DNA of 62,971 bases, the filler included, from Licmophora abbreviata (Eukaryota): assembly GCA_900291995.1 (NCBI GenBank). It is 17 parts of 17 records of this genome, joined end to end, with 100 filler letters (N's around TTAATTAATTAA, not from the genome) between each part and the next. Parts side by side here need not be neighbours in the genome. Positions count along the whole stretch, not along the records: positions 32,705 to 44,736 come from OLMU01006212.1; 16 more parts are not named here. One strand, 5' to 3'. This document shows positions 32,732 through 49,921 of the stretch, piece by piece (within the stretch, counting starts at the first letter, position 1; each line of letters begins with the position of its first letter). The notes beneath the pieces are model-generated. The model saw only the letters and a program-made list of their open reading frames with translations, ran no database searches and was not told the origin of the DNA. The position numbers were made by a program, and so were the translations under genes.

Positions 32732-33265
32732 TCAGGCCAGCCCTCCCTGCGTCTTGATGGCCCAAAGCAGGATGGCGATGGCATCCGCCTCGTTGTCATC
32801 GGCGGGGCTGAAGCCGCGCTGGCGCGCCGCATCGATCATGGCCTGCTTGGACGCGTTACCTTTACCCGTTGCATGGCGCTTGATGGTGCCGACCGGGACG
32901 CCCTGGTAAGGCACGCCGCGCAGCTCGGCCCAACTGGTCAGGACCGCCAGCAGCCCGCCAAAGACATGAGCCGCGTCCGTTCCAACATGCCGACGAACCT
33001 CCTCAAAATAGATCGCCTCGAGCGGGCCCGACAGACGGTCGATCTCCGTCAGCCAGTTGGTGAACCGCAGATACCGCATGCCGCCGCCGTCGTAGCGGCC
33101 GGGCTTGAAGCTGACGGTGCCGCTGATGATCAGGCCGTCGAAGCCGCGCAGAGCCCAGCCGGTAGTGGTGCCGAGGTCGAGCGCAAGGATTGTGCGGCCG
33201 CGCTCAGGCGGCGGCATTTTCGGGGTTGCGCCAACTGCGGCGCTGGACAGAGTCGTATCAGCCAT
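32732..33265 (-). CDS. RuvC-like Holliday junction resolvase
   Basis: ILALDLGTTTGWA, FEEV, TIKRHATGKGNASK and DDNEADA; SD AAAGGAG. Confidence 0.85.
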   Translation of the reverse strand: MADTTLSSAAVGATPKMPPPERGRTILALDLGTTTGWALRGFDGLIISGTVSFKPGRYDGGGMRYLRFTNWLTEIDRLSGPLEAIYFEEVRRHVGTDAAHVFGGLLAVLTSWAELRGVPYQGVPVGTIKRHATGKGNASKQAMIDAARQRGFSPADDNEADAIAILLWAIKTQGGLA

Positions 33266-33387
33266 GAGTGGTCTCCTTTTCTGGTTGGCTGCTCGGGTGG
33301 AAGACGACGGCGGTTGATGCTTGGCGGTACCGGCCGCCGTCGTCGGATTGATCTCGAGCCAGAACTTCGGCCCGAGCAGATTGCCCA

Positions 33388-33655
33388 GGGGTGGGTGGTG
33401 GACCTCCTCCCTTGCGGGGGAGTCCACCCACCCCTTTAGGGGTGCTTTTTCTGAAATCTGAAATCTGGCGCAGATCACTGATTTCATTGAGATTTTCCAG
33501 ATTTTGGAGCAGATTTTGCAAACCCCGTTCCGAAATCTGGAAACTGGCTCTCAACCCACTGAAAGATAATGGAAAAAACCAGATCTCAGATTTTTCGCGG
33601 CAGCCAGATTTTGCAAAATCTGGCCAGATTTCGGAACATGGACCCCAGATTTTGG
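33388..33655. repeat. Iteron-like CAGATTT/AAATCTG cluster with hairpins; putative replication origin
   Basis: Ten exact heptamers in both orientations between 33454 and 33652, directly downstream of the primase-helicase gene. Confidence 0.75.
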
Positions 33656-33673
33656 AAGGCAAAACAGCGTGTT

Positions 33674-36085
33674 TCATCGTGCCTCCTCCGTGTCGCGATA
33701 GACCCACACAGACGGGTTTTCGACGGGTAGAACGGCGCCGGTCTGGGGGCATTTGTAATGGCTGGGGAGCACGTCAATCAGCTCCGGTGTAATCTCCCCG
33801 GTATCGAAGTCGACTTGCTCCCGGCTGGTCGCAAGACGCATAGCCTCGACGCAAAGATAGCCGTATTTGCTGCGTTCGGTGGCGAGGTCCAGCGCTGTCG
33901 CAGCGGCCCCGCGGACGAACTTCACGTAGCCTTTCGTGGTCAGCACGTTCAGCCGTTCGCGGATGATCGATTGCCCGCCCAACCCTGCGGTGTTCTCGAA
34001 GGTCTCAGCGAACAAGGTCATGGTGTACATCCGGCCCTGAAGGGCCTCCTCGTGCAAAAGGCCGCAGATGACATCACCTTTGCGGTCGCGTTCGGCATCG
34101 TGCTTTGACCCGACCTCCTGACGAGCCAGCCGTTCGTTCATCGGGTTGATCTCGACCCAATCGCCCTTGACCTTGTCGATGATCTTCGCCGCCAGCGCCG
34201 GCCCATTGCGCAACTCGATTTCCAATTTTCGCTGCGGGCTTTCCTCATCGGGGCGGTGGAGAATGAGCCCCGAGGTGTAGAAGCCGCGCAGGGCGCTGGC
34301 GCCGGAGAGTGCCAGAAACGGGTCATCCTTGACCTGCTGCTTGCTGAGCTTCTTGGTGTGGTGGACCAGGATGACCCCGCAATCAGGGTTGATGTGATCG
34401 CGCAGAACCTCGACCCGATCCTTGAGGAAGAACATCATCGCGGCATTGTCGTTTTCACCGGCGCCCTCGGGACCGCCGTCAAAGAGATTGCGGATCGGGT
34501 CGATGCAGATGATGTCAACAGGATCCGCTGAGAAGGCGCTCCGGATGGCTTCCGCCACGCGAACACTGCCCTCGGTGTCGAGCAGCATTTTCAGCTTCGG
34601 CGTGGCCACGAGGTTGTCACGGGCAGCCGCCATCAGGCTTGGTGGCAGCGTGATCTGCTGCATGCGCTCGCGCAGATAGTGATACTGGATCTCCGCCTGG
34701 AGATAGAAGATCCGTAGCGGGCGTGGCGGCGTGAAGCCAAGGAAGGGCTGGCCAGCGGCCATGTGCACCAGCCAGGAGATCAGCAGGTCGCTCTTGCCCA
34801 CCTTGGGTGCGCCCCCCAGCACCAGAAGCCCGCCCGGCGTCAGCACGCGTGGCGCAATGATATCCGCTGGCATCGGGCTCGTGTCATCGAGGAGCGCGCC
34901 GAGGGTGAAGGTGGGCATGTCGTCCGGGGCGGGTGCTGCGCTGTCGAGCCGGATTAGGGGTGGACCGTGCTTTTCGACATGGATGGCCCAGAGGCGCTCG
35001 GACTCACGCTTGAGCCGCTCCACCGGCCATTGGGGCCGCAGCATGGCGGCATTGTAGCCGCAGATCGCTTCCCAGCCTTCGTCCTTCGACAGCCGTCCCT
35101 CATGGACCATACGGATAAAATAGCCGATCGCGGCCGAGGCGCCCTCGAAGCGGGACCAGTCATCCTGACCGCCCTCGCGCACCGGCGTGACCAGCACCTC
35201 GTCCACGCGGGGCTTGTCAGGCGCGGTGAAATCCGGCGCGAGATTGACGCCCGGCGCGGGCGGCATATCGGCCACGGCCTCGATGAACTCGTCCAGTTCG
35301 CGTTCGCTCTCGCCGTTCAACTCCACAATCTGAACCTGGGTCTTGAGATTGTTCTTGTAATAGACGGACCCTGCCACGCGGATGGGCTGATGGGCGGAGC
35401 GGAAATGCATGTCACCGCCAACCTTGGCGGCAATGTCGCCCCGCAGGCGGGTCACGCGCGCAATTTCGCTGTCCTCTGCGGGCTCGGTGAGCTTCCACCA
35501 TACATGCGCCTTGCGCTGGCCCTCAGGCGTGATGCCACCGCTTTCCACAACCATGGTGGGCGGCCCAAGATGGCGCTCTAGATGGGCTCGTTTGGCGGCA
35601 ATGTCTCCGTTGTCGATGTCGACAACAATGGCCTGCATCTGCAGCACTTCGGCGGCCTTGGCTTGCCCTGCGGCAGCGACCGTGCCGGGGATCACATAGA
35701 CCGCTGCCCACTCACGCGCCGCCCAGTTGGCGAAGGTCGCCATCTTGTCGGTGGTGTTTTCACCGGCCTCGATCCAGATGTTATGGGGCCGGCCGTCGAT
35801 GCCCTGGCCCTTGTCGATGAAACTGCGCACCGGGATCAGCCCGTCGCAATAGCCGAAGACCACCTCCATGAACTGGGCGATCTGTTCTGGATCAGGTTCA
35901 TCACCGAAGACATCGGCCATGGGGGCGGCATCGTTGAAATCGCGCCAAGGGTTGAAGTGGATCAGGTTTTCCTTTGGCGCATCCGGCGCGCTTTCGCTCG
36001 CATCTTTGGGATCATCACTCTTAGCCACTTTAGCCTCCTTCCCTGTGTCGTCGTATTCAGGCGGGTCTTTCGGGGCGTCGGTCAT
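33674..36085 (-). CDS. Primase (RepB'-like) - AAA_25/RepA-like helicase fusion
   Basis: VVDID, VESGG..HVWW and IRVAGS primase motifs; GAPKVGKS Walker A, IICIDP Walker B, LVHHTKK and SGASAL. Confidence 0.88.
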   Translation of the reverse strand: MTDAPKDPPEYDDTGKEAKVAKSDDPKDASESAPDAPKENLIHFNPWRDFNDAAPMADVFGDEPDPEQIAQFMEVVFGYCDGLIPVRSFIDKGQGIDGRPHNIWIEAGENTTDKMATFANWAAREWAAVYVIPGTVAAAGQAKAAEVLQMQAIVVDIDNGDIAAKRAHLERHLGPPTMVVESGGITPEGQRKAHVWWKLTEPAEDSEIARVTRLRGDIAAKVGGDMHFRSAHQPIRVAGSVYYKNNLKTQVQIVELNGESERELDEFIEAVADMPPAPGVNLAPDFTAPDKPRVDEVLVTPVREGGQDDWSRFEGASAAIGYFIRMVHEGRLSKDEGWEAICGYNAAMLRPQWPVERLKRESERLWAIHVEKHGPPLIRLDSAAPAPDDMPTFTLGALLDDTSPMPADIIAPRVLTPGGLLVLGGAPKVGKSDLLISWLVHMAAGQPFLGFTPPRPLRIFYLQAEIQYHYLRERMQQITLPPSLMAAARDNLVATPKLKMLLDTEGSVRVAEAIRSAFSADPVDIICIDPIRNLFDGGPEGAGENDNAAMMFFLKDRVEVLRDHINPDCGVILVHHTKKLSKQQVKDDPFLALSGASALRGFYTSGLILHRPDEESPQRKLEIELRNGPALAAKIIDKVKGDWVEINPMNERLARQEVGSKHDAERDRKGDVICGLLHEEALQGRMYTMTLFAETFENTAGLGGQSIIRERLNVLTTKGYVKFVRGAAATALDLATERSKYGYLCVEAMRLATSREQVDFDTGEITPELIDVLPSHYKCPQTGAVLPVENPSVWVYRDTEEAR

Positions 36086-36852
36086 GTGGGCAGGCCCCAA
36101 CAGCGCTCGACCCAGGGGCAGAAGCGGCATTCGAAAAAGTCGCGATTGGCGGCGATGCGGGGCAGCAGTTCCCTGGCTTCTGTGGCGCGAAGGATGCGCA
36201 CACCGCGATCCGACATGCGCTGAGCCAGCTCGGCGTCGAACGGGACTTGCTCGTGGTAAAGCTCGGCCGTGTCCTTGTTGATCGCGGTGAACATGGCCGG
36301 GTTCGCGGAAATCCCCGGCACCTGCGCTTCCATATAGGCTTGATAGACGGCGATCTGGGCGGCGTAGATCGGCTTGGACTTGGTCACGCCGTCCTTAACG
36401 CAAGCGCGCCAGTTCTTCGCGTTCATGGTCTTGCATTCCCAGAGCGCAGGAACGGGAAGGCCAATGCCCTCGGGGCCACTGGCGATTATACCATCGACAT
36501 GGCCCCGAATGCGCCCACCCGCGACCGAGAAGCCGAACTGTTCGCCATCAGGGCGATTGCCCTTGCGGGTGTAGAGATCGAAGCCTGCCTGTCTGAGCCA
36601 GGCGACCGCCAGATCCTCCAGCGCGTGGCCGATGGCGAAGATGCGCAATGACTGGCCTGAGAAATCCTGGCCCTCGTCTTTGGGCGTGGCCGTGAACTCG
36701 AATTGCAGGGCGCGTTCGCAAGCATGGCCAAGGCGCGAGCCACCAAGATAATCGCGGGGTGTGCGGGTGGCGTTCTCGGTCGTGATCGCCGCGTCGACGG
36801 CTTCATTGACACGCTCGGCAAAGCTGGGTGCGTGGTTGAAATCCAGGGTCAA
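36082..36852 (-). CDS. Cas4-like PD-(D/E)XK exonuclease
   Basis: YLGGSRLGHACER, GHVDG, WECKT, YAAQIAVY and CRFCPW..RC. Confidence 0.85.
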   Translation of the reverse strand: MTLDFNHAPSFAERVNEAVDAAITTENATRTPRDYLGGSRLGHACERALQFEFTATPKDEGQDFSGQSLRIFAIGHALEDLAVAWLRQAGFDLYTRKGNRPDGEQFGFSVAGGRIRGHVDGIIASGPEGIGLPVPALWECKTMNAKNWRACVKDGVTKSKPIYAAQIAVYQAYMEAQVPGISANPAMFTAINKDTAELYHEQVPFDAELAQRMSDRGVRILRATEARELLPRIAANRDFFECRFCPWVERCWGLPT

Positions 36853-37283
36853 AACGGAACTCCCTCGCCGAGTTCCGCATTGATTTCGAACATCTCGTTG
36901 CGGAAGGTGTCGATGGCCACGACTAGCAGGGCGTGCATTTGATACTCTGTCAGATCCGCAAAAGTTCGATCCCAACCGATATCATCAATTTCCCGGCCGA
37001 CTGCGCGCATGACGGCAGGCATCGCCATTGCTTCTTCTTCGGTTATCTCTGCCATGTTCAGTCCTTTCCTGGCTTTTCGGATGAAGGCCGACTGGCATTG
37101 CTGGGAGCAAAACCAGCGGGATGTGCGTTTGCCGCGGGGCTTGTGCGGATCGAACCAGCCAAAGCCGCGCGTGCGCGATGTGCAGGCGGCGCAAAGCTGA
37201 CCTCGCGGATGCCAGAGGCGATCAAAGCCCGGGCGATCCGCAGCCTCTGCGGGCGGAGATTGCATTTGCGCGACATGGCTCAT
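36849..37283 (-). CDS. Zn-finger / DUF6511-like protein
   Basis: CAAC..FCSQQCQ and C-terminal GVPF; overlaps both neighbours. Confidence 0.65.
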   Translation of the reverse strand: MSHVAQMQSPPAEAADRPGFDRLWHPRGQLCAACTSRTRGFGWFDPHKPRGKRTSRWFCSQQCQSAFIRKARKGLNMAEITEEEAMAMPAVMRAVGREIDDIGWDRTFADLTEYQMHALLVVAIDTFRNEMFEINAELGEGVPF

Positions 37284-38974
37284 GCCGCCTCCCGCGCGGT
37301 TGGTGCCGCAGCCATGATCAAGCTGCGGATCTCGCGCTTGTTGAAGGTGAAGGTCATCAGCGCCGAGGCCTTGTAGCGGGTCAGGCCATAGTCGCTGCGC
37401 GCATCAGGAGAGAGGTATTGCAGTTGCTTGTCTGTGGCGGGCTGGCTCAGCCAGCCGCGCGTCTTGAAGGCACTCTCGTCAGTTTCATGCTCATTGAGCC
37501 AGTCATCGGCCTGCGCAAGACACACGGACCGCTCGCCAATGCCCAGAAGTCGGGTCTGGGCTCCTTTGCGGCCACCAACCGCATACCACTGGCCCTGATA
37601 CCAGAAGATGCCACCCCAGGCCGTGAAGCCCGTGGCCATCAGCGCATCCTCCGAGCCGAAGAGGTCGACCCATTCGAAACTCGAGCGCTTCAGAAGGTCG
37701 ATTTCCGTCATCACGAAGCCGGAGAGCGCATCTCCCAGCTCTCCCTCCTGGCTCTCCGCCTCATCCTCTTCGACGAGCAACGCCCCGCAGATGGGACATT
37801 CGCGTGCCGCCAAGGGAATATCAGCCGCGCAGTCCGGGCAGGTCTTTGTCAGGGCATCCCCGCTGCCGGTAGCCCCGTCGAGATCCACATCCTGTTCCAG
37901 CGTGCCATGGGTCAGGCTCGACGTCCCGAAATCCAGCACGATACAGTCGGTCTTGATCACGCCCGCGAACTCGGCGGGATCGACAGTGCGCAGGCCCCGG
38001 CCCACCATCTGGATCATGGTCGATTTGTAGGAGCTGGGGCGCAGCAGCACGACGCAGGAAGTGGGCGGGTGGTCCCAACCCTCAGTGAGCACGGCCACGT
38101 TGGTGATGACGCGGATTTCGCCGTGGGCGAAGGCGGCCAGAATGTTGCGCCGTTCCTCGCCGGGCAGATCACCATGGATCCGCCCCGTAGGGATGCCGGC
38201 TGCGTTGAATGCCTCGGCCACATGCGCCGCATGCGCCACTGTGGAGCAGAAGACGACAGTCGGGCGATCCTTGGCCTTGTCCTGCCAATGGCGGATCACC
38301 TCCTCTGTTATTGGCGCGCGGTCCATGATCTCGGCCACTTCGGCCATGTCGAAATCCGACACGGTCTTGCGCACGGCCTTGAGCTTGTCCTGCACGCCGA
38401 CATCGATCACGAAGGTGCGCGGCGGCACCAGGTGACCCGAGGCGATCAACTCACCCAGCCGCACCTGGTCGGCGACATTGTCGAAGACCGCCCGCAGCCC
38501 CTTTTTGTCGCCCCGGTTCGGTGTGGCCGTGACCCCGAAAATGCGTGCCTCTGGATTGGCATCGCGCACATGATCGATGAGGCGACGGTAACTGTCAGCC
38601 ACGGCATGATGCGCCTCATCGATGACCAGCAGGTCTAGCTTCGGCATGGCAGCCAGATTGCGTTCGCGCGTCAGCGTCGGGACCATCGCGAAAGTCACCT
38701 GCCCGCCCCAGGACTTGGTCGTGGCATCTACTACGGAGGTGGTGATTGCCGGATTGACCCGTCCGAACTTCTCCCGGTTCTGTGCGGTCAACTCGTCACG
38801 GTGGGCGAGCACACAGGCCTTGGCGTCAGTGTCGCCGATGCTTTCGCCGGTGACCGCCGACAGCATGATCGTCTTGCCCGCTCCCGTCGGCGCGATGCCG
38901 AGCGTGTTGTTGCGGGTGCCGAGCGCAGACAGGCTGCGCTCGACGAAGAGTTTCTGGCGGGGACGCAATCGCAT
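37280..38974 (-). CDS. SF2 DEAH-box helicase
   Basis: PTGAGKT, IDEAHH, TATP, LTEGWD and QMVGRGLR motifs plus a Zn finger. Confidence 0.95.
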   Translation of the reverse strand: MRLRPRQKLFVERSLSALGTRNNTLGIAPTGAGKTIMLSAVTGESIGDTDAKACVLAHRDELTAQNREKFGRVNPAITTSVVDATTKSWGGQVTFAMVPTLTRERNLAAMPKLDLLVIDEAHHAVADSYRRLIDHVRDANPEARIFGVTATPNRGDKKGLRAVFDNVADQVRLGELIASGHLVPPRTFVIDVGVQDKLKAVRKTVSDFDMAEVAEIMDRAPITEEVIRHWQDKAKDRPTVVFCSTVAHAAHVAEAFNAAGIPTGRIHGDLPGEERRNILAAFAHGEIRVITNVAVLTEGWDHPPTSCVVLLRPSSYKSTMIQMVGRGLRTVDPAEFAGVIKTDCIVLDFGTSSLTHGTLEQDVDLDGATGSGDALTKTCPDCAADIPLAARECPICGALLVEEDEAESQEGELGDALSGFVMTEIDLLKRSSFEWVDLFGSEDALMATGFTAWGGIFWYQGQWYAVGGRKGAQTRLLGIGERSVCLAQADDWLNEHETDESAFKTRGWLSQPATDKQLQYLSPDARSDYGLTRYKASALMTFTFNKREIRSLIMAAAPTAREAA

Positions 38975-38985
38975 GGCGTGTCCCC

Positions 38986-39600
38986 TCACTCAGCCCAGCT
39001 GGGCCGGCCGGTGAACCCGGGGCTGGCTGGCGGTTGCGCCGGCGCTTGGGCGGTCTGTTGCGGGGATTGCGGCGCGGCGGGGGCACTCGGCAGAGTGGAC
39101 GCCGCAAGCCCCATGACAGACGCGTAATCGCGATGGTTTGGCGCCAGTGCGCTTTTGATCTCGTTTTTCTCCTCCCCATTGCTGTCGGTGCCGACATCGA
39201 TGCGGGCAACAAATTCCAGGCCATCAAGTTCGTGGAAGCCGGCAATCCGGCGCCGCGCCTGGGCCTCGGGCGAGTTGTCCTTGTCGGAAATCCCGCGAGA
39301 CGAATTGAGGATACCCCGGATCAGGCTGCGCCCCATATTGGCCCAGTTCGGGCCATTGGGGCTGTAGAGCCCGATCATCGACCAGATCTTACGCTTGGCG
39401 TAAGGCCCTTCGAGCACCGTGAATTCGGCATCGAGATAGACAGCGCCCGTGCCGCCGCGCTTGGCATAGCCGCCGGTCCAGCCCTGCGCCGGATCGTCAA
39501 ACCCGCCCGGGCGGATGGTCAGGCGCACCTTGGCGATCGTGCCTTTGGGGATCAGATTGATGTTTGACTGTGCGTCGTTGAAATCGTTCCAGAGAGACAT
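38986..39600 (-). CDS. Putative phage single-stranded DNA-binding protein
   Basis: LIPKG..YLDAEFTVLEGPYAKRKIW; Pro/Ala tail ending RPSWAE; follows the AAA ATPase. Confidence 0.65.
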   Translation of the reverse strand: MSLWNDFNDAQSNINLIPKGTIAKVRLTIRPGGFDDPAQGWTGGYAKRGGTGAVYLDAEFTVLEGPYAKRKIWSMIGLYSPNGPNWANMGRSLIRGILNSSRGISDKDNSPEAQARRRIAGFHELDGLEFVARIDVGTDSNGEEKNEIKSALAPNHRDYASVMGLAASTLPSAPAAPQSPQQTAQAPAQPPASPGFTGRPSWAE

Positions 39601-39613
39601 CGCTCAAGTCCTT

Positions 39614-40507
39614 TCAGTTGGCGGAAACGTTGGGGGTGTCAGCCATCGCAGGGGACGGCTTTGGGAGTTGCGGTGACTGGTAGATCAGCCGGCGTTCGGC
39701 GGGCGCGAGGGGGCCACGGATCTTGTCCATCAGCTGACCCAGATGCGGCGGCTCGGTCAGATCGAGACGACCGGAGCGATCCTTGGCAGGGAAGCCCCAG
39801 GGGTTGAGGGTTTGGCAAACGAAGCCGCGCTGGAGCTGCCCGTCCTCACCCTTGATCTCGGCCATGGTAATGACCTGATCAACGATGCCCGGCAGCTCGA
39901 GCCCGGTCTTGGACCCATCGATCTGCGGCATGAAGACCTTGCGATTGAAGTCGTCGAGCTTCTCGTCGAGGATGCCGACAAACCAAACATTCTTGCCGCG
40001 CGTGTGCTGCAGATGGGTCAGCCAAGCGATCATCTCGCGCCCATGCAAGCCGTAGGCGCCGCGCACATCGGGCTTTCCTGTTTTTTCTGAATGCGCCTCA
40101 GGCTGCCCCTTGCACCATTGAAAGCAGAGCCGCCCGGCCACGGTGATCGAGTCGATGAAGACCGTGTCATACTTGTCGAGCGCGGCTGGATCGCCGAACT
40201 TCTGGCAAACGGCCGCATAATGCGCGGGGCTATAGGCTTGATCATCGCGCAGCGCCGGGTTCGGCCCGCCAATAAACACCGCGAAATCCCGGCATTCGGT
40301 CCAGGTGCGCGGCCGGATGGCGTCGATCGCCAGCCCTTCGATGGCCAGGTCCCCAGCTTCTAGATCAAAAAACAGCGTGGTGGAGGCGTTCAGCGTCCAG
40401 AGCAGGCTGGTCTTGCCGATACCAGAACGACCGAAAATCACGCCCTTGATGCCCCGGGCCTCAGCCAAACGCTGATCGGCAGTGATGATGGGAAGCGCGC
40501 CGGTCAT
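39614..40507 (-). CDS. AAA_24/Sak4-like ATPase
   Basis: GRSGIGKT, DLEAG, VFIDSIT and PAKDRSG. Confidence 0.85.
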   Translation of the reverse strand: MTGALPIITADQRLAEARGIKGVIFGRSGIGKTSLLWTLNASTTLFFDLEAGDLAIEGLAIDAIRPRTWTECRDFAVFIGGPNPALRDDQAYSPAHYAAVCQKFGDPAALDKYDTVFIDSITVAGRLCFQWCKGQPEAHSEKTGKPDVRGAYGLHGREMIAWLTHLQHTRGKNVWFVGILDEKLDDFNRKVFMPQIDGSKTGLELPGIVDQVITMAEIKGEDGQLQRGFVCQTLNPWGFPAKDRSGRLDLTEPPHLGQLMDKIRGPLAPAERRLIYQSPQLPKPSPAMADTPNVSAN

Positions 40508-40989
40508 GCCGCCTCTCCCGGTTCAAGCGTGATCTTCAGCGCCCCAACTCTTACGGTGCGCGCGGGCTCGAACCCCTTCCGCCAAGCCTCGGGCAGTGCG
40601 CCGTATTTGCGCTCCGAAACCGTCAGCTTGGTGTCGATGAACTCAGATGGATCCTCACCGCTGTCAGCGATGTTGGCTGCGATCTGCGCAAGCTTCTCTT
40701 GGTTCCAGTCGACGCGTTTCGGCAGATCGGCCACCACGGTGTAATAACCGTCAGCCAGCCGCACAGTACCAGTGTCCTTACCACAGGCACGGCGGGCCTC
40801 GGCGGCGCGCGTGGAGTAGCGCACCTCGAGGGCTGCGTTGAAACGTGCGGTGGCGGATTTGTGCTGGCGGGCGGCATGCGTGAGTTCCGCCTGCAAACCT
40901 GCCAGCAACTCAACCGGCATTTGAGCCAACTCGCCAATCGGCATGTTGAGCATGTCATCCACGCTCCGGGTGTTTTGAGGATAAGGCAT
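40504..40989 (-). CDS. Conserved hypothetical phage protein
   Basis: SD AGGAG; GKDTGTV..LPKRVDWNQ..VSERKY..F.PARTV. Confidence 0.75.
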   Translation of the reverse strand: MPYPQNTRSVDDMLNMPIGELAQMPVELLAGLQAELTHAARQHKSATARFNAALEVRYSTRAAEARRACGKDTGTVRLADGYYTVVADLPKRVDWNQEKLAQIAANIADSGEDPSEFIDTKLTVSERKYGALPEAWRKGFEPARTVRVGALKITLEPGEAA

Positions 40990-41012
40990 GGGGTCTCCTT
41001 TCTTGGGGTAAG

Positions 41013-41348
41013 TCAGGCCGCTTCTGCGAGCTGCTTGACGGCTTTTTCCGTGCGGGGTGTCTTGGGTCGGGCGATGGCCTGGTAGGAAAACAGGTCTGGG
41101 CCCAGCCGTTTCTGGACGAGGTGCACGAGCCCATGGCATTCGCTCCAGAAGGCGCGGTCGCGCAGCAGCGCCAGTTCAGCGCGGGCATTGAGATCCAAAC
41201 CTGACGTGACCTTGTCGGCATCCACCGCGAGATGGCCGCGATGGTATTCCAGGCAGTCGCCTGGCACAGCCTGAGCCACCCAGGCACAAAACTGGATCTC
41301 CGTCAGAGCGCGGCTGGCGCGTACGGTGGCAAAACGGGTGTGTTGCAT
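41013..41348 (-). CDS. Conserved hypothetical phage protein, first gene of the replication operon
   Basis: SD GAGGAGG; FCAWV.QA.PGD.LEYHRG.L..LVHLVQ.R. Confidence 0.75.
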   Translation of the reverse strand: MQHTRFATVRASRALTEIQFCAWVAQAVPGDCLEYHRGHLAVDADKVTSGLDLNARAELALLRDRAFWSECHGLVHLVQKRLGPDLFSYQAIARPKTPRTEKAVKQLAEAA

Positions 41349-41369
41349 GAAATTGGCCTCCTCAATATT

Positions 41370-41400
41370 CTCCTACTCACGCCGAAGCGAAATCGTCCCA
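41370..41400 (-). promoter_or_regulatory. Bipartite promoter-like site, copy 1 (TGGGACG-N14-TGAGTAGGAG)
   Basis: Same boxes and spacing as 44310-44340; lies 22 nt upstream of ORF 41348. Confidence 0.75.
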
Positions 41401-41973
41401 TGAGGGGCCGACGCCGAAGGCGGTCAGCACAGGTCGAAGGTCCGCAAGGCGCCGATAAAGTGCCGAGCGGCTGGCAAAACCCTCAGAAACAAGCTCGGCA
41501 ACAGAGCGATGAGCAAGAGCCCGGCAGAGTGAGCGCTGATCGGCTGAGAGGAGCGATACCGCGCAGTGCAGCGCATGTTGACGCTCGAAGGCGAGATGCT
41601 TGCAGGTTGGCTGGCCATACCAGGCTGCAAGGCCGTCATCTTCTGACAGGGTTTCGCAGAGAGGACGCGGATCGGCCTCGTCGCGGGGGGCATCTAGGGA
41701 CAGATGCCCGCCGTTTTCCACGTCTCGGGTCCGCATGATGCGCAGCGCGATGCGCGACGACTGGTTTTTTAGGATGATGCCAGCGAACGCACCCAAGCTG
41801 CCACGCGATCTGTCGAAGGCCGGCAGGCGGCGCAGCAGATCCACCAGCAGGTCCTGGCCAAGATCCTCGACTTCGCGACTAGGCAGACCCAGTCTGCGCC
41901 GCAACTTGCGTGCGGCCATGTTGGCCTCGAAGATGAGGGTTTCAATATCGTCTGGGGTGAGCTCGATCTGCAT
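41377..41973 (-). CDS. Phage-encoded ECF-like sigma-70 factor
   Basis: Region-2-like EDLGQDLLVDLLRRLPAFDRSRGSLGAF, LSLDAP, and region-4-like L..DQR.L..SRSALYRRL. Confidence 0.75.
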   Translation of the reverse strand: MQIELTPDDIETLIFEANMAARKLRRRLGLPSREVEDLGQDLLVDLLRRLPAFDRSRGSLGAFAGIILKNQSSRIALRIMRTRDVENGGHLSLDAPRDEADPRPLCETLSEDDGLAAWYGQPTCKHLAFERQHALHCAVSLLSADQRSLCRALAHRSVAELVSEGFASRSALYRRLADLRPVLTAFGVGPSWDDFASA

Positions 41974-42079
41974 TGTTGCGGTCCTTGGTCATCGTTTCGG
42001 ATGAGCCCAAGGTGCCGGATGCAGCGTCCCCTTCGGTGGGAACTGGGTGGGAATATGGTGGGCGTTTGGTGGAAACGCG

Positions 42080-43030
42080 TCAGCCGTCGATCACGATTTC
42101 GGTGGCGGGAATGCTCAGATAATACCCTCGATTGCGCGCGACCACGATCAGCGCCATCACCTCTTCCTTCGAGAAACCCGCCGCTTTGAATGCGTCGCGC
42201 AGTTCCCGGATCAAATCTTTTGCCTCGCGTCCCGACGTGCCCTCAAGCTTCGGGCCAGAAACGATGGGATCGCGGGTTCTGCCTGCATCTGCGAGCTGGC
42301 GAAACACCGGAAACAGTTGATGCGAGAGGATGACCGAACGGCCCATCCATTGAACTTCGCCGGTTCCTGAACGAAGCTGAAGCTTCGGTTTCGATGCTGC
42401 AGGCTCAATCACACCGCCATCGACCGTGGCCCCAAAGGGCCCTGAGCCCGGGATCAGCGCATGCGCTGTCTCAACGGCAAGAATGCCCGCGTCCTCAAAG
42501 GTCAGTGCGATATTGGTCGGCAGCTTCGGGCCAAGAAGCGTGATGCCTTGCTCTTTTGCCGCCTGTCGAAGGCGCAGCAGCGCGCCGTCATACGCGACCG
42601 AACGCACCTCCAGCGTCAAGAACACACTCCGGCCAGAAGCCATACTACCGAGCATCCAAAGGCCTGCAGCGATTTCCGGCGGGTCTGCCGAGAAGCCCGC
42701 AGTGATGCCGATTGCAGAGGCCAAACTCCCCGCTTCGATGGAATAGGCCCGCAGATCATCCTCGCTGAGATCGATATCACGACGGCGATCCAGCGGACAT
42801 TCCGCCCGAAACCCGGTGCCGTTGGGGCGAATTTTGCGCGCCGCCAGCCCACAATCACACAGGTCGCAGGTATCCCAATGTGTCAACGAGGCCTGCTCGA
42901 TGAGCACGCCCCGCGCAAGCAAGCGTTTGAAAACTGGCTCCGGGATCGAAGCCGCCATATCGCCGGCAAGGATTGCGTCGTTCCCGGCTTCACTCAGCCG
43001 CGTCAACAACCTCAAAATCGTCTCGGTCAT
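42080..43030 (-). CDS. Hypothetical protein with Cys cluster and C-terminal winged-helix domain
   Basis: CDLCDC..ECP; C-terminal IRELR..RNRGYYL resembles an OmpR-type wHTH. Confidence 0.6.
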   Translation of the reverse strand: MTETILRLLTRLSEAGNDAILAGDMAASIPEPVFKRLLARGVLIEQASLTHWDTCDLCDCGLAARKIRPNGTGFRAECPLDRRRDIDLSEDDLRAYSIEAGSLASAIGITAGFSADPPEIAAGLWMLGSMASGRSVFLTLEVRSVAYDGALLRLRQAAKEQGITLLGPKLPTNIALTFEDAGILAVETAHALIPGSGPFGATVDGGVIEPAASKPKLQLRSGTGEVQWMGRSVILSHQLFPVFRQLADAGRTRDPIVSGPKLEGTSGREAKDLIRELRDAFKAAGFSKEEVMALIVVARNRGYYLSIPATEIVIDG

Positions 43031-44231
43031 TCACCAGTCCATTGCGTTCGATCAAGGTCATGACACGCCCTTCGAATTGGGTGCGGCGGAATTGGACCAC
43101 GCCCGGCGGGCGCAACTTCACGGTCACCTGCGGCTGTCGCTTGCCATCCCCCTTGAAGACGATGCGGAATACCAATTCACCCAGCCGCCACGATCCATTG
43201 AAGGTCACCGGCATGGAGGCGAAATGTCTGAGCGCTTGCCCGGAAACGTCCCGCGACCGCAGGGTGCGGGCTACACGCGGATATCCACTTTTACCCGGGA
43301 CCATGAAATCGGCGGCCGCCTCGATAATCTGAACGCTCTCGATGGTCGGATCATAACTGTGCCTGAATGTGAAATTGGGCCCCGCAAGCTCGACAGGGCG
43401 CAAGGTGTAGAGGTCTTGCGCGTCATCCCCGTCGAAAAAGCCAGGCCGCTCCAGAATGATCGTCGCAAAGAACTCCGCGATTTCAGCCTGATGCGCTTTG
43501 CGGATGCGTGCGAGCCTCAACATGCCAGTGCTTTCCGAATAGCGCAGAACCGCGTGCGAGATCTGTCTCACGCTGATGACCCGCTCTTGTTGTCCCTCGA
43601 CGACCGGCATGGTCGACACTGTGGCGCCATGGCTGACCACGAGATTGATCTCGTCGCCATCGGCGTAATCACCAACACGGCAGTAATCCCCCTGAAACGC
43701 CTTGCAGAAGAGCTTGCCAACGGCGGCGCGGAACGCCTCCACCTTTTCCCGTGTCAGGTCGATCAGGACACCGCGTTCACGGCCGGCATATTCGTGCAGG
43801 CGATCTGCCGTCATCATTGCCATGTGATCGGCTGCGGCGTCGAAAAGGTCGGGATGTTCCAGGAACACGCGCAGCGCCATGTGCTTGGGGTCATGCGCTG
43901 CCGGTGCGGTTTCGTCATCGCTTGTCTTGAGCTCGGGGAAAAGATCAATACCTGCGCGGTCCGCCTGCGTCAGAATGATCTCGAGGCCGCGTGCATCGCC
44001 CAGCGATGCAATACGGTGCAGGTCTTCGCGCAGCCCCTCAGGATAGCTGTCTTCATCGCCAGCCAGCAATTCCTGCAAGGCTTCGCGGGCCCTGGCCTCC
44101 TCCTGATCAAGGATTGCAGGTGAAAACCCGATATATTCCCCGGCATGGCGCTCCATCAACAGCTTCATGACGGTGAGGTCGATTGTCTTGATGAACCGAG
44201 GGTTCACGAACTTCTTCAAATTGCTGGCCAC
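42990..44231 (-). CDS. Hypothetical protein, first gene of the LexA-box operon
   Basis: About 410-aa ORF; GTG start at 44231 with SD GAGGGAG; overlaps the next gene. Confidence 0.75.
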   Translation of the reverse strand: MASNLKKFVNPRFIKTIDLTVMKLLMERHAGEYIGFSPAILDQEEARAREALQELLAGDEDSYPEGLREDLHRIASLGDARGLEIILTQADRAGIDLFPELKTSDDETAPAAHDPKHMALRVFLEHPDLFDAAADHMAMMTADRLHEYAGRERGVLIDLTREKVEAFRAAVGKLFCKAFQGDYCRVGDYADGDEINLVVSHGATVSTMPVVEGQQERVISVRQISHAVLRYSESTGMLRLARIRKAHQAEIAEFFATIILERPGFFDGDDAQDLYTLRPVELAGPNFTFRHSYDPTIESVQIIEAAADFMVPGKSGYPRVARTLRSRDVSGQALRHFASMPVTFNGSWRLGELVFRIVFKGDGKRQPQVTVKLRPPGVVQFRRTQFEGRVMTLIERNGLVNDRDDFEVVDAAE

Positions 44232-44262
44232 AGCGAATCTCCCTCTGCCCAAGCTCCGAAAA

Positions 44263-44277
44263 GTTCACTATATGTTC
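44263..44277 (-). promoter_or_regulatory. Alphaproteobacterial LexA (SOS) box
   Basis: GTTC-actatat-GTTC matches GTTC-N7-GTTC exactly; overlaps a minus-strand TATAGT -10 with TTGCTG 16 nt upstream. Confidence 0.8.
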
Positions 44278-44309
44278 TCATTTCAATTCAGCAAGACCGA
44301 CACGGGTCG

Positions 44310-44340
44310 TGGGACGCTTTACCGATACCATGAGTAGGAG
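44310..44340 (+). promoter_or_regulatory. Bipartite promoter-like site, copy 2 (TGGGACG-N14-TGAGTAGGAG)
   Basis: Matches 41400-41370; upstream of ORF 44370 and the DUF2924-like gene. Confidence 0.75.
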
Positions 44341-44369
44341 CCTTAGGAGAAGACCGCTCCGAGGCCCCC

Positions 44370-44573
44370 ATGAAACGACCCAACCCACTGCCACCGGACA
44401 AGATGACCGCCATGGAACGGCGCGCAGAAATGTGCCGCCTGCTGGCGCTTGGCCTGATCCGCCTCCACCAGCGGGACTTCGCACAACTATCTGACGTAAA
44501 AGGAGAAAGTTGGCTACACAACTCAGCCGACCAGAGCTTTCATGCAACTCCTATAGAAAAGGAGACCGCATGA
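44370..44573 (+). CDS. Small hypothetical protein
   Basis: MKRPNPLPPDKMT..ERRAE.C.LLALGLIRL; SD GAGG; ATGA overlap with the next gene. Confidence 0.65.
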   Translation: MKRPNPLPPDKMTAMERRAEMCRLLALGLIRLHQRDFAQLSDVKGESWLHNSADQSFHATPIEKETA

Positions 44574-44736
44574 CACACCATGATCCCATCCCGGCGCGAC
44601 TGGCCGCGCTGAAGACTACGTCGACACGCGACCTCAAGGCACAATGGCGCGAGCTGTTCGACAGCGAGCCGCCACCCTTCAACCGACGTTATCTCGAAAG
44701 CCGCCTCGCATACCGCATTCAGGAACTGGCCTATGG
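44570..44736 (+). CDS. DUF2924-like protein (usually upstream of a serine recombinase), truncated
   Basis: LK.QWRELF..EPPPFNRRYLESRLAYRIQELAY; SD AAGGAG. Confidence 0.85.
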
Positions 44737-44836
44737 NNNNNNNNNNNNNNNNNNNNNNNNNNNNNNNNNNNNNNNNNNNNTTAATTAATTAANNNNNNNN
44801 NNNNNNNNNNNNNNNNNNNNNNNNNNNNNNNNNNNN

Positions 44837-47287
44837 CATGGCTTTCTGTTGGGAGACCAGAGACGAGGGCCATCGCGTACGTTGCGGAATTCTTCGTCGT
44901 ACGACTCGCTGCTCTCGATGGGTGCGGTCGTGCAGTGGCGTGACCTTTTGCAGCAGTCGATTCGGCGTGGTCTCTCCAAGCTACGACAGGCATTGGTCAA
45001 CCACCCTCCTCCTTGGTGGCTGCTCTTGACTTCGACGTTTCCGTTTTGCAACTGCAGCAACGCCTTGACGCAGATACAATCTTTCTTTTGGTATCCGCTC
45101 GCCTTATGGTGGACTCTGTGTAGTGTTGAGGACGGACAGGGCGGAGAAAATGGAAATTCTCATTCCAAGGGAGGCGCTTCTCGTACTGTCACCGCCTTGC
45201 CACAGGAAGAAGAACCGGTCCATAGTACCAACGCGAGTCTCAACGAAGAGGATCAACGAAACGATCTCTCTAAAGCTTTCCCGCTTCAGCAGCAACGATA
45301 CCTCGAACTCCTCGTGCACAATGTGTCCCATACTGACATGGTCCTGAGTGTAGAGGCTCCTACAAGTGCGAGTACTATCGAGGAAGACGCAGACAGCGAA
45401 GACGAGTATTGCATGTGCCAGCCACGATTCTCGGCCTTTGACATGTACGCTCGAAGGATTCTGGAGAGTCTCCAAGACAGTACGGGGACATCGTCATCGT
45501 CATCGATTGTTTCGTTTCCTCGCTACGAACGAGCCGGTGATACACGATTCAGCATTGTCACTCCCAAGGCGCCATCGCGACGGACGCAAGTTCCCACAGG
45601 TATTCAATTGCCATACGAGCATGCGGCACTCGAGATCATTCCCGATGAACTCTCAAGTTTGAGATTTCGGGGAAAAGATGCGCCCCGCATGACCGATCCG
45701 AATGCTATGACAACCACCACGTACATGAACTATGTTTTCTTTCCGCTCCTTGCGACCTTGCTGCCCCGATGGCATCAACGCATGCAGGACACACATGCGA
45801 CAAACAACCGTCACCATGTAAAGAAGGTGCTACTGCTTGTGACTGGTGTAGGAACTCCGCGGAACTGGACGCACAGCATAACAGGAAACTCCACTGAGTT
45901 GTGTGCGCAGATCATGGAGAAGTTCGTCGCAATGGTGTATCCGGATGTGACGGTGGTCAGGTAAATCCTGTCTGCTGATCAGGGCCTCGCTCGTATCTTG
46001 TACTTCCTGCCTGTGTCTCAACCCTTTCGTACTGGCCGCTCACACAGAATTCATTCCGACACAAATCTCTTTCGTTACGACGAAAACATACTTTTTGTCA
46101 ACCGGGAGCTTATGCCGTGTATCGACGCGTATCGTGATGCCCATGCTCGTGGACTACCTTACCCAGATGAAAGTGAAAAAAGCGCGTCTCAGATTTTTAC
46201 AAAGACGGACCACCCATTCTCGACCAACTGGAAGCAGTCGTTTTCCGTCACATTGAGTTTCGCGGATGGTTCTCCGGCGCGCACGCACGCAATTCAGGCT
46301 AGTCTACGTCCGTATCGCCCCACATACTTCCATGTTTGGCAGCTGAAGACTTTCTGGCATGATACCAAGATTGTTGATGACGATATTGAAGTACATTCGT
46401 TTGAAGAGATGGAAACTGTTCCAGCCATGGAGACTTCGGAAGTGACTGATGTGGGAGTGCAAATGGTAGTAGAGGAAATAAAGCAGTTTCGACAAAACTT
46501 TCTAGAGACGATTCTGGAGGATCGCAATGACATTCGAAGGTTCTGGCTACGCAAAACGATGAAACCAGTCCTGGCGGTACTCCTGGTGAACGATACCAAT
46601 GGCAAACCTGTCCTCTACCGGGGCACCAACATGGAAGTGAGCATGCCGACAGGATCCTTGTGTGCGGAACGGAACGTTATTGGAAGTGCGCTCGCGATGA
46701 ATCCTGGTTTGAAGCGAGAAGACTTGCGCATGGTGGCAGTACTAGCAGTGCCACTGCCTAGTGATACGAGCAACGTTGAGGAATCCGTTGTTCGGGACCC
46801 CAACATGAGCCGTTCCGATAGCGTGCACAGCTTCTCGAGCATCGTGCAGGATACATCACATGAGGAAGAGGAATGGATCTTGGCACAGGAGGCGCCAACT
46901 ACTGGCGAGGAGCGTGTGGCGAGCCTGGTGACGGCGGCCAGAAACGCTATTTCAGCGAAGGAGCTTCCCATTGGTGCCCCGCCGCTCCATCGAAAACCGT
47001 CGATATCGAGCCCCCCTGGAACTCCCATGCGATGTACGCCCATCTCACTGTATTCCCAGAACAGCGAGACAAACTTGCGAGCTCTTGACAGTAATAGCAA
47101 GACCAGTCGCAAGCAGAAACGTACGGTCCTGCTGAATCACGGCATGAACGATCTCAATCCTCTCATGCCATGTGGCAGCTGCAATGAGTGGCTGAAGAAA
47201 ATTGCCGAGTCGAATCCGTACTTCAAGGTCGTTACGTTCACCGACGCGGAGTGTACGGGGATTTTCATAAATCCCTGCCAAGAGTAA
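44837..47287 (+). CDS. Large protein with a C-terminal cytidine-deaminase-like domain, 2 exons, 5'-truncated
   Basis: GT-AG intron 45961-46047; GTNME..SLCAERN and PCGSC Zn motifs. Confidence 0.75.
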
Positions 47288-47707
47288 AAGTAGTAAGAAA
47301 GCGGCACCCGTTACATGTAGTCAAGTGCTGTGAGAGGCGCTCCTAACGCTAGAAGATTACGAAAAGTACCATGTTTCGAGGGTGATTGAGCTCATGTAGC
47401 TCATGATGCCCGCCTAAGGCTCTTGTGCCATACGTAGTCCCAGGAGCCTAGTCTCGCTGAAGTTGGTAGAGACAACCGTTAGACCCCTCAACAGTCCCTC
47501 ACCTCAATGCGACAGTGGAAAAGTCGATCGAGTCGAACTAGTCCCATTGAGTCGAGTAAGTCGTGACGATCGACTCGACCCACTTCGCGCTTTCGTGGGA
47601 CACACAATGACCGTGGCAGCGCCGTCGAAGCAAGCGGCCATTGATGTAGCCTGTTCTTCGCGATCTCTGTCCCCTTGACGTCCACGCTTGCTGTTCTTAC
47701 GCTCGCC

Positions 47708-48941
47708 ATGCGCCGCACAGCTACTGCGACGCGTTCGAATAGTCTCGAAAGTGCTGCTGACGCGAGTAGCAATCCGACAACGAGTGCTCCCCGACGGCGA
47801 CCAGACGACACTAACACCACGGCCGAGTCGAGCACCATGAGTGCCTCGCTGCTCTTGTCGTCTCGTCAACGGCGGAAGATACCAGGTGGAGATCCGAAAA
47901 GGCGACTACTGCAGTTCTTTCTGTGTCTTCCGTGCATGGGGCTCTTTCTCATGTACGCAGTGTTCCTCTTGCAGCAGCCCTCGTCGGTGGACATGATTCG
48001 AGAGGGCGTGCACGCGTTGGAGCAGTCACTCGTCATCAGCGGGAGTCACACGTCGGAATCGACCATTGTCACTGCTTACTTCCCCTTGGACGGATCCAAG
48101 TACACAAAGGGCACATACAATGACTGGATGAAAACCATGCTCAGTCTGCAGGACAGCATGCTCATCTACACGACGCCAGACATGAAGCCAGTCATGCAAG
48201 AGCTGCGGCGCCACGCTCAAAATCGAACGGAAATCGTCACCTTGCGCAGTATAGAGAACGTTCCCATGTTACAAGAGTTTCAACAGCAGCAACCTGACTT
48301 TTGGATCTCACAACTCCAAAAGGACCCAGAACGACGCCTGCATAAGTCCTATGCGTTATTTCAGATTTGGCTCAGCAAGCCTTGGTTCGTTTCGGATGCT
48401 GCCCGTCGCAATCCATTTGGATCCCAATATTTCGTGTGGAGTGACATTGGCTGTTTTCGAACGAAACAAATACAAAGTATGTATGGAGGTCGTCAGCTAA
48501 TACAACATGTCGACGTGATTCCCTCTTCGAACGTCCTGTTCCTGGCCCATCATGATCCGAATCCGCCCGACACTCCGTGGTGGACGGACAAGATCGTTGA
48601 CAAGCCTCATTTTTATCATTCGGGCAGTGTCATGGCGGGCAATGTGGCAAGTTGGGCCGCATTGTATGATGCCTATGTAGAGACGTTGCGTGGTTATGTG
48701 GAACGGGGCCTCTTTGTAGGAGACGATCAGGTGGTCATGCAGTCTACCTGTCTACAGCATCCAGCTCTTTGTGCGTACATTACGCGGGAGCAGGTCAAGG
48801 ATAATCATTACTTTGGATTGAGGTATGCACTCTTTCAGGGAGGCGAGTATAAGTATTGGCATCCACCCAGCGTGACACAACAGCAGAAGGAGACGACCAC
48901 CTCGAATACCATTGCGGACAAGTCCATCATTGAGTCGAATT
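47708..48941 (+). CDS. Type II membrane protein with HtrL/YibB-like glycosyltransferase domain
   Basis: TM segment, then TIVTAYF, SKPWF..NPFGS.YFVWSDIGCFR and GDDQ. Confidence 0.65.
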
Positions 48942-49041
48942 NNNNNNNNNNNNNNNNNNNNNNNNNNNNNNNNNNNNNNNNNNNNTTAATTAATTAANNN
49001 NNNNNNNNNNNNNNNNNNNNNNNNNNNNNNNNNNNNNNNNN

Positions 49042-49921
49042 ACCGCAGCTACGAGTTATTTATATGGATGATTCCTTTTCCGCATCCTCATTGCAATCTG
49101 CGCCGAATACCGTCGTGACTGCTTACTTTACATTACAAAGCAAGTTTCCCAGTACAGAATACAACAAGTGGATGACGCATATGCTAAGTTTGCAAGATCC
49201 AATGGTGATCTTCACGTCTGCCGCTTTGGTCGACCAAATGAAGAGCTTAAGGAAGCATGCGATGCAGAAGACGGTCATTATTGCAATGGAATTGGAGCAA
49301 GTGCCCTTGGCGCAAGAGTATGATGTCAAGTTTTGGGAGCATCAGTTGGATATCGACCCAGAGAAGAAGCGTCATCAGTCGTATCAGCTCTTCTGGGTAT
49401 GGCTCAGCAAATCTTGGTTTGTGACGGAATCGATTCGGCAGAACTTTTTCGACAGTGACCTGTACATGTGGAGCGACATTGGATGCTTTCGCAGAGGCGT
49501 GTACGATGGGAAGGAAATGATTCAGCATCGTGAACAAATACCGCGTACCGCGATTGTGCAAATGGCTCATCACCCGCCCAATCCACCCCCGACCGTCTGG
49601 TGGAACGACAAGTACAGTCAAAAGGAACACTTCTATCATTCAGGGTCGCAATCGGCTGGGTACAAGGACGTGTGGATAAGATTTCACAACGAGTTCCAAA
49701 AGACGATACACGGCTTCGTAAACAGAAGTATGTTCATGGGAGAAGATCAGGCAGTGATGCAGTCGACGTGTGTGAGAGTTCCTGATCTTTGTGCCTATGT
49801 CCCGCATGATCAAGTACAGCCACATGACAATCACTATTTTGGCTTACGCTATGTCGTCCACCACGGTGGCAGCTACAAGCTATGGAGTCCACCGGCACGA
49901 GCGGAAGGAGGGGTGGAGTGA
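49042..49921 (+). CDS. Second HtrL/YibB-like domain (same gene or tandem paralogue)
   Basis: TVVTAYF, WSDIGCFR, HFYHSGS and DNHYFGLRY are shared with the preceding ORF; frame is open to the contig start. Confidence 0.65.

Follow-up and report, generated by a model that had tools for sequence, protein, structure and literature searches.

The 62,971-nucleotide stretch of DNA analysed here (hereafter the window), taken from the Licmophora abbreviata assembly GCA_900291995.1, includes a contig piece of prophage DNA that encodes a sigma factor resembling the extracytoplasmic function (ECF) group. Two copies of the bipartite motif TGGGACG-N14-TGAGTAGGAG accompany this gene, and these twin sites are probably promoters recognised by the ECF-like sigma that the prophage itself encodes. 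The motif is found exactly twice in the window, with zero mismatches, and no third copy is present in the window at up to three mismatches. An initial annotation of the sequence had described the same 7-bp and 10-bp boxes with 14-nt spacers at two places and opposite orientations, and both proved to be exact (Table 1). The two sites point outward, as that annotation had stated: site 1 into replication and recombination genes, and site 2 into genes for p67, a DUF2924 protein and a serine recombinase, the last being seen in relatives. Each site reads TGGGAC, G, n, TTT, a gap and GAGTAG, with two unlike boxes always pointing at the next gene. The p67 start codon (ATG) lies 32 nt after the GAGTAG of site 2, and the p111 ATG follows site 1 at position 41348.

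In shuffled versions of the window the motif gave a mean of 0.13 matches, and two or more matches in 1 of 100 shuffles. When 91 unique sites from relatives were turned into a weight matrix, the window's own pair reached 31.6 and 30.4 bits, while the rest of the window stayed at 8 bits or less; the two spacers in the window agree at 5 of 14 bases. The pattern was chosen after it had been seen, and when the 17 contig pieces of the window were resampled 40 times under a first-order Markov model and any exact pair of 7-bp and 10-bp words separated by 14 nt (7+N14+10) was counted, such a twin arose in 26 of the resamples, with a mean of 1.2 pairs. The twin alone is therefore not significant, and its weight lies in its position and in its conservation in relatives. 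The real window contains 109 pairs sharing an exact 7+N14+10 word versus the resample mean, and the excess is attributed to longer repeats, because most of the words listed are consecutive and overlapping.

Conservation and exclusivity of the twin sites

The relatives examined were the best 80 of 115 confirmed bacterial loci, with sigma factors 47-67% identical to that of the window, giving 81 sources when the window is included; they are phylogenetically linked, and counts over them are not independent trials. The boxes, the 14-nt gap and the orientation are kept at both places in these relatives, so that one refuting condition named in the initial annotation, a lack of conservation in relatives, clearly does not apply. 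The core of site 1, [TC]GGGAC-N16-GAGTAG, was found at the 3' end of the sigma gene in 78 of the 81 sources, and the three misses (loci L051, L063 and L064) are contigs stopping inside the sigma gene. Site 2, when the search was anchored on the motif, was present in 69 of the 81. Nine of the twelve misses are short of upstream DNA, rearrangement accounts for two (L043 and L066), in which neither p67 nor p420 was detected, and the last is L005. Anchoring the search on p67 rather than on the motif revealed YGRGAC-N16-GAGTAG within 75 nt upstream in 72 of 73 sources, three distant relatives included, and the sole miss, again L005, has a one-base insertion in box 2.

The hexamers are separated by 16 nt in every site found (n=78 for site 1; n=69 or 72 for site 2), and at site 2 both are fixed across the relatives. 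Ahead of box 1 the sequence there is uninformative, and the spacer is variable except for a short T-run after box 1. Within a locus, the spacers of sites 1 and 2 agree on average at 4.5 of 14 bases. GAGTAG and the start of p67 are 31-32 nt apart in 63 of 69 sources, and at the other site GAGTAG lies 18-24 nt before the first p111 ATG. Three relatives with sigma identities of 40-44% were found by whole-genome profile searches, and in these site 2 still reads TG(G/A)GAC(G/A)-N14-TGAGTAG. Of the two, only site 2 is universal; site 1 is a feature of certain lineages, since two of these three most distant relatives lack it. The twin sites are not an RNA element: no Rfam family reached its gathering score on the piece, and no consensus fold was obtained at either site. 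The sole Rfam match, a snoRNA model scoring 19.5 versus 37 bits, lies elsewhere in the piece.

The motif follows the sigma gene at the level of whole genomes. In all five host genomes of relatives searched (3.5-4.8 Mb), sites 1 and 2 are the only two occurrences of its 12-base core, and a reversed-pattern control gave one match over all five. An even sample of 401 Rhodobacterales genomes contained the sigma in 16 and the motif in 32. The motif was present in 15 of the 16 sigma genomes, with at least two copies in 10, and the remaining sigma genome (G669) carries the variant TGAGACA. Paired sites were confined to sigma-bearing genomes in this sample. Among the other 385 genomes the motif was found in 17, in 14 of them as a single copy with an unrelated spacer. 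The spacers in the other three (G682, G733 and G739) are identical or nearly so to those of other prophage sites, and these matches are probably fragments overlooked by the sigma search, in which no more than 8 candidates per genome were scored. With the reversed control, about 78 matches were obtained in about 70 of the 401 genomes. The motif is therefore the element's own and not that of a host regulon. No copy was detected upstream of the sigma gene or its operon in the window or the five host genomes, and the sigma is thus predicted not to be autoregulated through the twin motif.

The sigma factor as candidate reader of the sites

The sigma gene had been placed by the initial annotation at 41377-41973, and the open reading frame (ORF) was confirmed on the minus strand, encoding 198 amino acids (aa). 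The protein matches Pfam Sigma70_r2 at 27.9 bits versus a cut-off of 24, and a profile search of PDB sequences gave weak matches to region 2 of SigH and RpoE only. An AlphaFold2 (AF2) model, with a mean predicted local distance difference test score (pLDDT) of 68.6, has two helical domains and is of low confidence at residues 84-98, 112-128 and 186-198. Sigma chains made up all 50 Foldseek matches listed (E 5.5e-3 to 0.23), and VIA-align placed residues 4-80 on the N-terminal domain of SigE (Z 8.4, root-mean-square deviation (rmsd) 2.4 Å, 73 residues). The alignments to sigma chains reach residue 187-188 of the model and residue 604 of sigma-70. The most conserved C-terminal stretch is G-S-R-x-x-L-Y-R-R (residues 167-175), which is kept in relatives of 35-50% identity, and this fits the invariant boxes. 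With moderate evidence for the fold, we describe the protein as a divergent two-domain ECF-like sigma that is not filed as a curated ECF member.

Relatives of the protein are numerous, with 549 matches in one protein search, from sources mostly in the Paracoccaceae and Roseobacteraceae, and 2375 cluster representatives in another. None was found among 50,697 sequenced phage records, either by protein or by DNA. Literature searches returned no paper on this sigma family, and DUF2924 was found in only three papers, all on Wolbachia.

PMC5758882 describes ECF promoters with a -35 element tGAAACnTTTt, a -10 element CGTA or CGTC, and optimal spacers of 14-17 bp, a range within which the 16-nt hexamer gap falls. 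The TGnnAC frame, the T-run and the GTA of the boxes are shared with sigma-W-type promoters. The system resembles ECF (group 4) sigmas such as sigma-W and sigma-V of Bacillus subtilis in its small, apparently two-domain sigma and in its putative bipartite promoters with a TGnnAC-type -35, a T-tract, GTA in the -10 and a short fixed spacer. Unlike sigma-W and sigma-V, the factor studied here is prophage-borne and would be paired with TGGGAC/GAGTAG, there is no autoregulatory copy of the motif, and no anti-sigma gene was recognised, the downstream p111 being without a family match.

Loci in which another gene stands in for p316 or p316 is lacking, and loci with p420 at only 24% identity, carry the same motif, and p316 and p420 are therefore excluded as readers. 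The sigma, p111, p67 and DUF2924 remain as candidates, and of these only the sigma has a fold made for the task, which is association and not proof. The claim of the initial annotation that the sigma reads both sites is thus favoured by conservation, exclusivity and ECF-type geometry, with the sigma being named as the reader from association and geometry only.

Site 1 overlaps the end of the sigma gene, as had been noted, the TGA of box 2 being the sigma stop codon (41379-41377). Box 1 consists of codons W192-D193 and the first base of D194, and the site as a whole spans the last seven codons and the stop. The sigma ends in W-D-x5-stop in all 78 sources, with 19 different tails, and the tail is predicted to be disordered (pLDDT <50 for residues 186-198). 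Codon usage was compared in 33 parsable unique genes, 45 loci having been skipped because the start-codon pattern used did not fit them. Codon 193 is GAC in 33/33 and the stop codon is TGA in 33/33, while the other Asp codons in these genes are GAC in 44% of cases (177 GAC, 227 GAT). Although non-coding, the GTAG that follows the stop is retained in 78/78 sources. The distant relative L117 has a sigma stop codon, TGA, in place of the usual TGG, so that its copy of the motif, TGAGACG-N14-TGAGTAGGAG, lies entirely in non-coding DNA. Nine full-length distant representatives among the matches listed also end in W-D-x5, and the tail of P0133 is longer. Judged from these patterns, the constraint at site 1 appears to act on the DNA. 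The tail is of fixed length but free sequence, as a promoter spacer would impose, and looks like a largely translated promoter spacer. It would be a clear case of a promoter constraining, and partly creating, a protein terminus.

In a remote sigma subfamily (L095-L098, L102 and L120-L132), the stop codon is directly followed by a conserved two-part motif peculiar to that group, reading CCGACAG ... GGTAAGTAAC or CCAGACG ... GTATGTAAC, and two of the loci have a sigma frame that extends across it. This motif differs from the twin motif by 4 nt in spacing and is not alignable to it with confidence, so that it serves as a lead only. The sigma of this subfamily lies directly upstream of a gene starting MPG[SL]RGN, which we take to be a P27-type terminase small subunit.

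Several observations weigh against reading the twin sites as promoters of the sigma. The boxes are without the canonical ECF words AAC (-35) and CGT (-10). A motif search in related prophages, with attention to co-variation between boxes and sigma, had been proposed at the outset; the motif was indeed conserved, but co-variation was absent, the boxes being invariant even at 40% sigma identity. The NCBIfam model of the ECF superfamily, TIGR02937, matches residues 21-161 at 26.2 bits, below its cut-off of 42.9, which is why the protein is called ECF-like. There was no Pfam match to sigma region 4 at E <=0.01 and no Foldseek match to the model at E <=0.001, and a VIA-align Z of about 8 is modest for helical proteins, one unrelated helical protein having reached a Z of 7.0. 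The weight-matrix scan of the window found no copy of the motif before the terminase or on the other pieces, and the late genes would therefore need another switch. Of 24 public runs listed, only two RNA-labelled ones contain part of the stretch, at shares of 0.13 and 0.06, in the form of contigs of relatives 85-95% alike, and these contigs show neither starts nor strand. In addition, conservation of p67, DUF2924 and p111 is as wide as that of the sigma, and all three are without known fold. The likeness between the two sites runs past the -10-like box (GAGTAGAGGC..GGAG in many relatives), which could be the mark of a site for another protein. Finally, site 1 is absent in the distant relatives L118 and L119, where the sigma and p111 genes nearly abut, and read-through from the upstream promoter could make it dispensable.

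Some of these points belong to an explanation in which the motif is the binding site of p67, DUF2924 or p111, repressing or activating both operons. Synteny is kept for p111 in 74, for p67 in 69 and for DUF2924 in 67 of the 80 loci (p420 in 73, p316 in 65), so that these three accompany the motif with about the regularity of the sigma; none has been assigned to a fold or family, and the extended likeness of the sites would suit such a protein. We nevertheless regard this explanation as unlikely. A dimeric regulator would not usually bind two unlike boxes that are repeated neither directly nor in inverted form. A promoter is consistent with the 16-nt gap, with the T-tract and with the constant spacing to the start codons, and the sigma gene lies between the sites in every case.

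It is more doubtful still that site 2 alone is functional, with site 1 conserved through its W-D codons and the sigma stop. Box 1 of site 1 is coding and its W-D invariant, two distant relatives do without the site, and a scan found no terminator-like site between the upstream promoter and the replication genes, making read-through possible. Conservation of the coding sequence would, however, leave unaccounted for the non-coding GTAG kept after the stop in every source, the fixed length of a tail with variable residues, the use of GAC at codon 193 when GAT is commoner elsewhere in the gene, and the survival of the whole motif outside the coding region in L117.

Reading of the sites by a host sigma, with the prophage sigma-like protein doing something else, is very improbable. 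The boxes loosely resemble ECF promoters in general, with nothing direct in its favour, but a host regulon would leave copies before host genes, and 5/5 host genomes are without further copies. The 14 single copies with unrelated spacers in the 385 genomes lacking the sigma likewise fall below the reversed-control rate. That the twin arose by chance, or survives as the neutral and functionless trace of a duplication, has next to no probability in spite of the frequency of exact twins in the resamples, because boxes, spacing, orientation and position are conserved in about 70 genomes in which the spacers have diverged.

A putative SOS-triggered cascade and its relation to known systems

If the twin sites are promoters of the sigma, the DNA upstream suggests how the sigma itself may be controlled. 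A LexA-type (SOS) box, GTTC-N7-GTTC, is present within 200 nt upstream of site 2 in 69/69 sources, at 46-80 nt, with a background of 118 matches in 1.77 Mb of strand scanned. The SOS box of Caulobacter is likewise GTTCN7GTTC (PMC9578287, Table 1), and the same box lies upstream of lexA in 5/5 and of recA in 4/5 host genomes of relatives. The putative promoter of the p420-p316-sigma operon scores below the threshold of the consensus scan, and its candidate -10 (TATAGT) sits inside the LexA box. Control of the operon by LexA is likely. Candidate LexA boxes before the sigma gene of L118 were rejected, being instead part of a four-fold AGGTTCG repeat.

The second gene of the operon, p316, appears to encode a regulator of the OmpR/PhoB type. 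Its AF2 model has a pLDDT of 82.7, and Foldseek matched it to eight response-regulator chains at E <=0.001 (CosR, RpaA and BaeR among those named). The rmsd to isolated DNA-binding domains is 2.8-3.0 Å over about 100 residues, and full-length response regulators align over about 180-200 columns. The domain Trans_reg_C matches 8 of 15 p316 homologues at E <=1 (best 1.1e-4), the p316 of the window being without a match, and a lead from the Atlas also pointed to an OmpR/PhoB-type protein. A conserved cluster of cysteines (C55, C58, C60 and C78) is found in the N-terminal domain, before the response-regulator-like body, and may be a metal or redox input.

Four direct repeats of (T/C)CCACC in exact 11-nt steps lie between the p316 stop and the sigma start. 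The repeat word was surveyed in the relatives, two sources being skipped for having too little upstream DNA. CCCAC-type repeats are present in 32/32 loci with p316 at 50% identity or more. At 28-45% identity (n=33), ten loci have CCCAC-type and eleven CACAC-type repeats, one has another word, and eleven are without an exact threefold word. Where p316 is absent (n=17), the counts are six GGGAGGTTTTC-type, two CCCAC-type, two with other words and seven with none. CACAC repeats thus occur only with divergent p316 and GGGAGGTTTTC repeats only where p316 is absent, and the repeat word tracks the type of regulator only in part. On this pattern, p316 may well bind the four repeats before the sigma gene.

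The sites with their conservation and exclusivity, the sigma fold, the LexA-type box and the repeats are observed; who binds what, and in what order, we infer in a model where a cascade triggered by the SOS response would end at the twin sites. LexA of the host, bound in the lysogen to GTTC-N7-GTTC over the -10, would repress the p420-p316-sigma operon, and DNA damage would remove it. The OmpR/PhoB-like p316 would then probably bind the four 11-nt-spaced repeats and boost the sigma. The sigma in turn would direct host RNA polymerase to site 2, for expression of p67, DUF2924 and the large serine recombinase, and to site 1, for that of the replication and recombination genes. A bolder and distinctly less likely reading is that of a widespread Rhodobacterales prophage family whose switch lacks any repressor encoded by the phage. 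Host LexA would act over a relay in which a winged-helix activator leads to an ECF-like sigma and the sigma to two dedicated promoters, firing excision or integration jointly with replication. The sigma frame would have taken in one of these promoters, and the disordered tail of the sigma would be its own promoter translated.

Phage proteins that replace the host sigma in a timed cascade are known from SPO1 (gp28, gp33/34) and T4 (gp55), where they serve the middle or late genes of virulent phages. The proposed system is similar in that a phage protein would redirect host RNA polymerase to phage promoters. It differs in belonging to a temperate element and in its targets, which would be the replication and integrase/recombinase modules, with no copy of the motif before the packaging genes. 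An alternative sigma under SOS control is known in UviA (TcdR family) of the Clostridium perfringens plasmid pIP404, whose target is a bacteriocin. Both cases would combine LexA-type repression of the sigma gene of a mobile element with a few dedicated promoters used after DNA damage. The sigma group and the target are different, and UviA is not known to have a winged-helix intermediate or a promoter inside its gene.

Host LexA acts as a direct repressor in the prophages GIL01 (Bacillus thuringiensis) and CTXphi. As in these, a host LexA box would sit on a key early promoter, with no classical CI-type repressor in view. Unlike in GIL01 and CTXphi, LexA would control a regulator and a sigma rather than lytic genes, and the box is the alphaproteobacterial direct repeat. 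Activators of the OmpR/PhoB family bind direct repeats one helical turn apart (the pho-box), which is analogous to the winged-helix fold of p316 and the four repeats in 11-nt steps before its putative target gene. In contrast to these activators, p316 has an extra Cys-rich N-terminal domain, and no partner kinase is in view. Unusual here would be the recombination and replication targets in place of late genes, the relay via a winged-helix protein and the promoter inside the sigma frame. The LexA box, the p316 regulator with its repeats, and the position of site 1 within sigma codons are new findings of this analysis.

Sigma relatives are common, being carried by 16 of the 401 sampled Rhodobacterales genomes. 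If the model holds, it would give a complete and readily testable wiring from damage sensing to excision and replication in these marine and soil prophages. The sigma and its promoter motif would also form a compact pair that is absent from the host genomes searched apart from the element's own copies, and it may not cross-talk with host promoters.

Gene context and composition of the window

Table 1. Positions of the twin sites, regulatory elements, genes and linkers in the window
Feature	Position	Strand	Basis or detail
Site 1, putative sigma-dependent internal promoter of the replication operon	41400-41370	minus	Exact match, TGGGACGATTTCGCTTCGGCGTGAGTAGGAG
Site 2, putative sigma-dependent promoter of the p67/DUF2924/(recombinase) operon	44310-44340	plus	Exact match, TGGGACGCTTTACCGATACCATGAGTAGGAG
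Site 1 hexamers	TGGGAC 41400-41395; GAGTAG 41378-41373	minus	
Site 2 hexamers	TGGGAC 44310-44315; GAGTAG 44332-44337	plus	
Sigma-70 family, ECF-like two-domain sigma gene, 198 aa	41377-41973	minus	Pfam, structure model
Inverted repeat TCATC-N6-GATGA, directly before the sigma ribosome-binding site	41989-42004	minus	Kept as TCATCAGAAACGATGA in relatives
Four direct repeats (T/C)CCACC, exact 11-nt steps	42035-42073	minus	Starts 42073, 42062, 42051, 42040; conserved in relatives; putative p316 array
p316: Cys-rich N-terminal, middle alpha/beta and C-terminal OmpR/PhoB-type winged-helix domain	42080-43030	minus	Fold, homologue matches
p420, first gene of the operon	42990-44252	minus	ORF; homologue in 73/80 loci
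LexA (SOS) box GTTC-N7-GTTC	44263-44277		GTTCACTATATGTTC; alphaproteobacterial type
Putative housekeeping-type promoter of the p420-p316-sigma operon	44267-44294	minus	TTGCTG 44294-44289, N16, TATAGT 44272-44267; read by eye
p67, small protein, first gene after site 2	44370-44573	plus	ORF; homologue in 69/80 loci
DUF2924 gene, 5' part only	44570-44736	plus	Pfam DUF2924 positions 2-49 of 135
Replication/recombination operon downstream of site 1	32732-41348	minus	ORFs, domain matches, synteny in relatives
Linker blocks (examples)	44737-44836; 22575-22674; 32605-32704		

The minus-strand genes p420, p316 and sigma precede the replication row, in which p111 and p211 are followed by a Sak4-like annealing protein, p204, a helicase, a Cas4-like exonuclease, a primase/helicase and a RuvC-like resolvase. 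Translation of p420 probably begins at a GTG codon at 44231, which follows the ribosome-binding site GGGAGA. The genes for p67 and DUF2924 are divergent from p420, and the p67 stop overlaps the DUF2924 start (ATGA). Searches of domain libraries, structures and the Atlas gave no family, solved relative or informative neighbour for p420, p67, p111 or p211.

The DUF2924 gene is short because the contig piece ends at 44736, and the recombinase is not on this piece for lack of DNA beyond that end. A deletion of the prophage at 44737, considered from the drop in G+C and the short DUF2924 gene, was ruled out, as this position is the start of a linker. In the relative L015, a full DUF2924 gene is followed by a large serine recombinase of 493 aa with Resolvase, Recombinase and Zn_ribbon_recom domains. 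A homologue of the recombinase was found in 68 of 84 sources, and the remainder, the window included, mostly end too early. A 4338-nt contig of a relative from run X20 (labelled metatranscriptomic) covers 41235-44527 and spans both divergent operons. It differs at 278 bases over about 3.2 kb, and could reflect either DNA carry-over or transcription of both strands.

The window consists of 17 contig pieces joined by 16 identical linker blocks (N44-TTAATTAATTAA-N44), and the twin sites and their flanking genes all lie on the single piece 32705-44736. The G+C content is about 60% for the pieces at 22675-44736 and about 49% for the others, and the jumps between these values arise because pieces of different contigs adjoin. 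The assembly may mix two kinds of DNA, given this split. ORFs that cross linkers, such as 44510-44788, 22627-24444 and 47675-48997, are artefacts. The terminase large subunit is represented by two overlapping minus-strand ORFs, 24401-24985 and 22627-24444, of which the second enters a linker, and the split may be due to a frameshift or an assembly error. The right-hand pieces of lower G+C encode, at 45998-47287, 47675-48997 and 49064-49921, an LmjF365940-family deaminase and two HtrL/YibB-family proteins, which are unrelated to the prophage piece.

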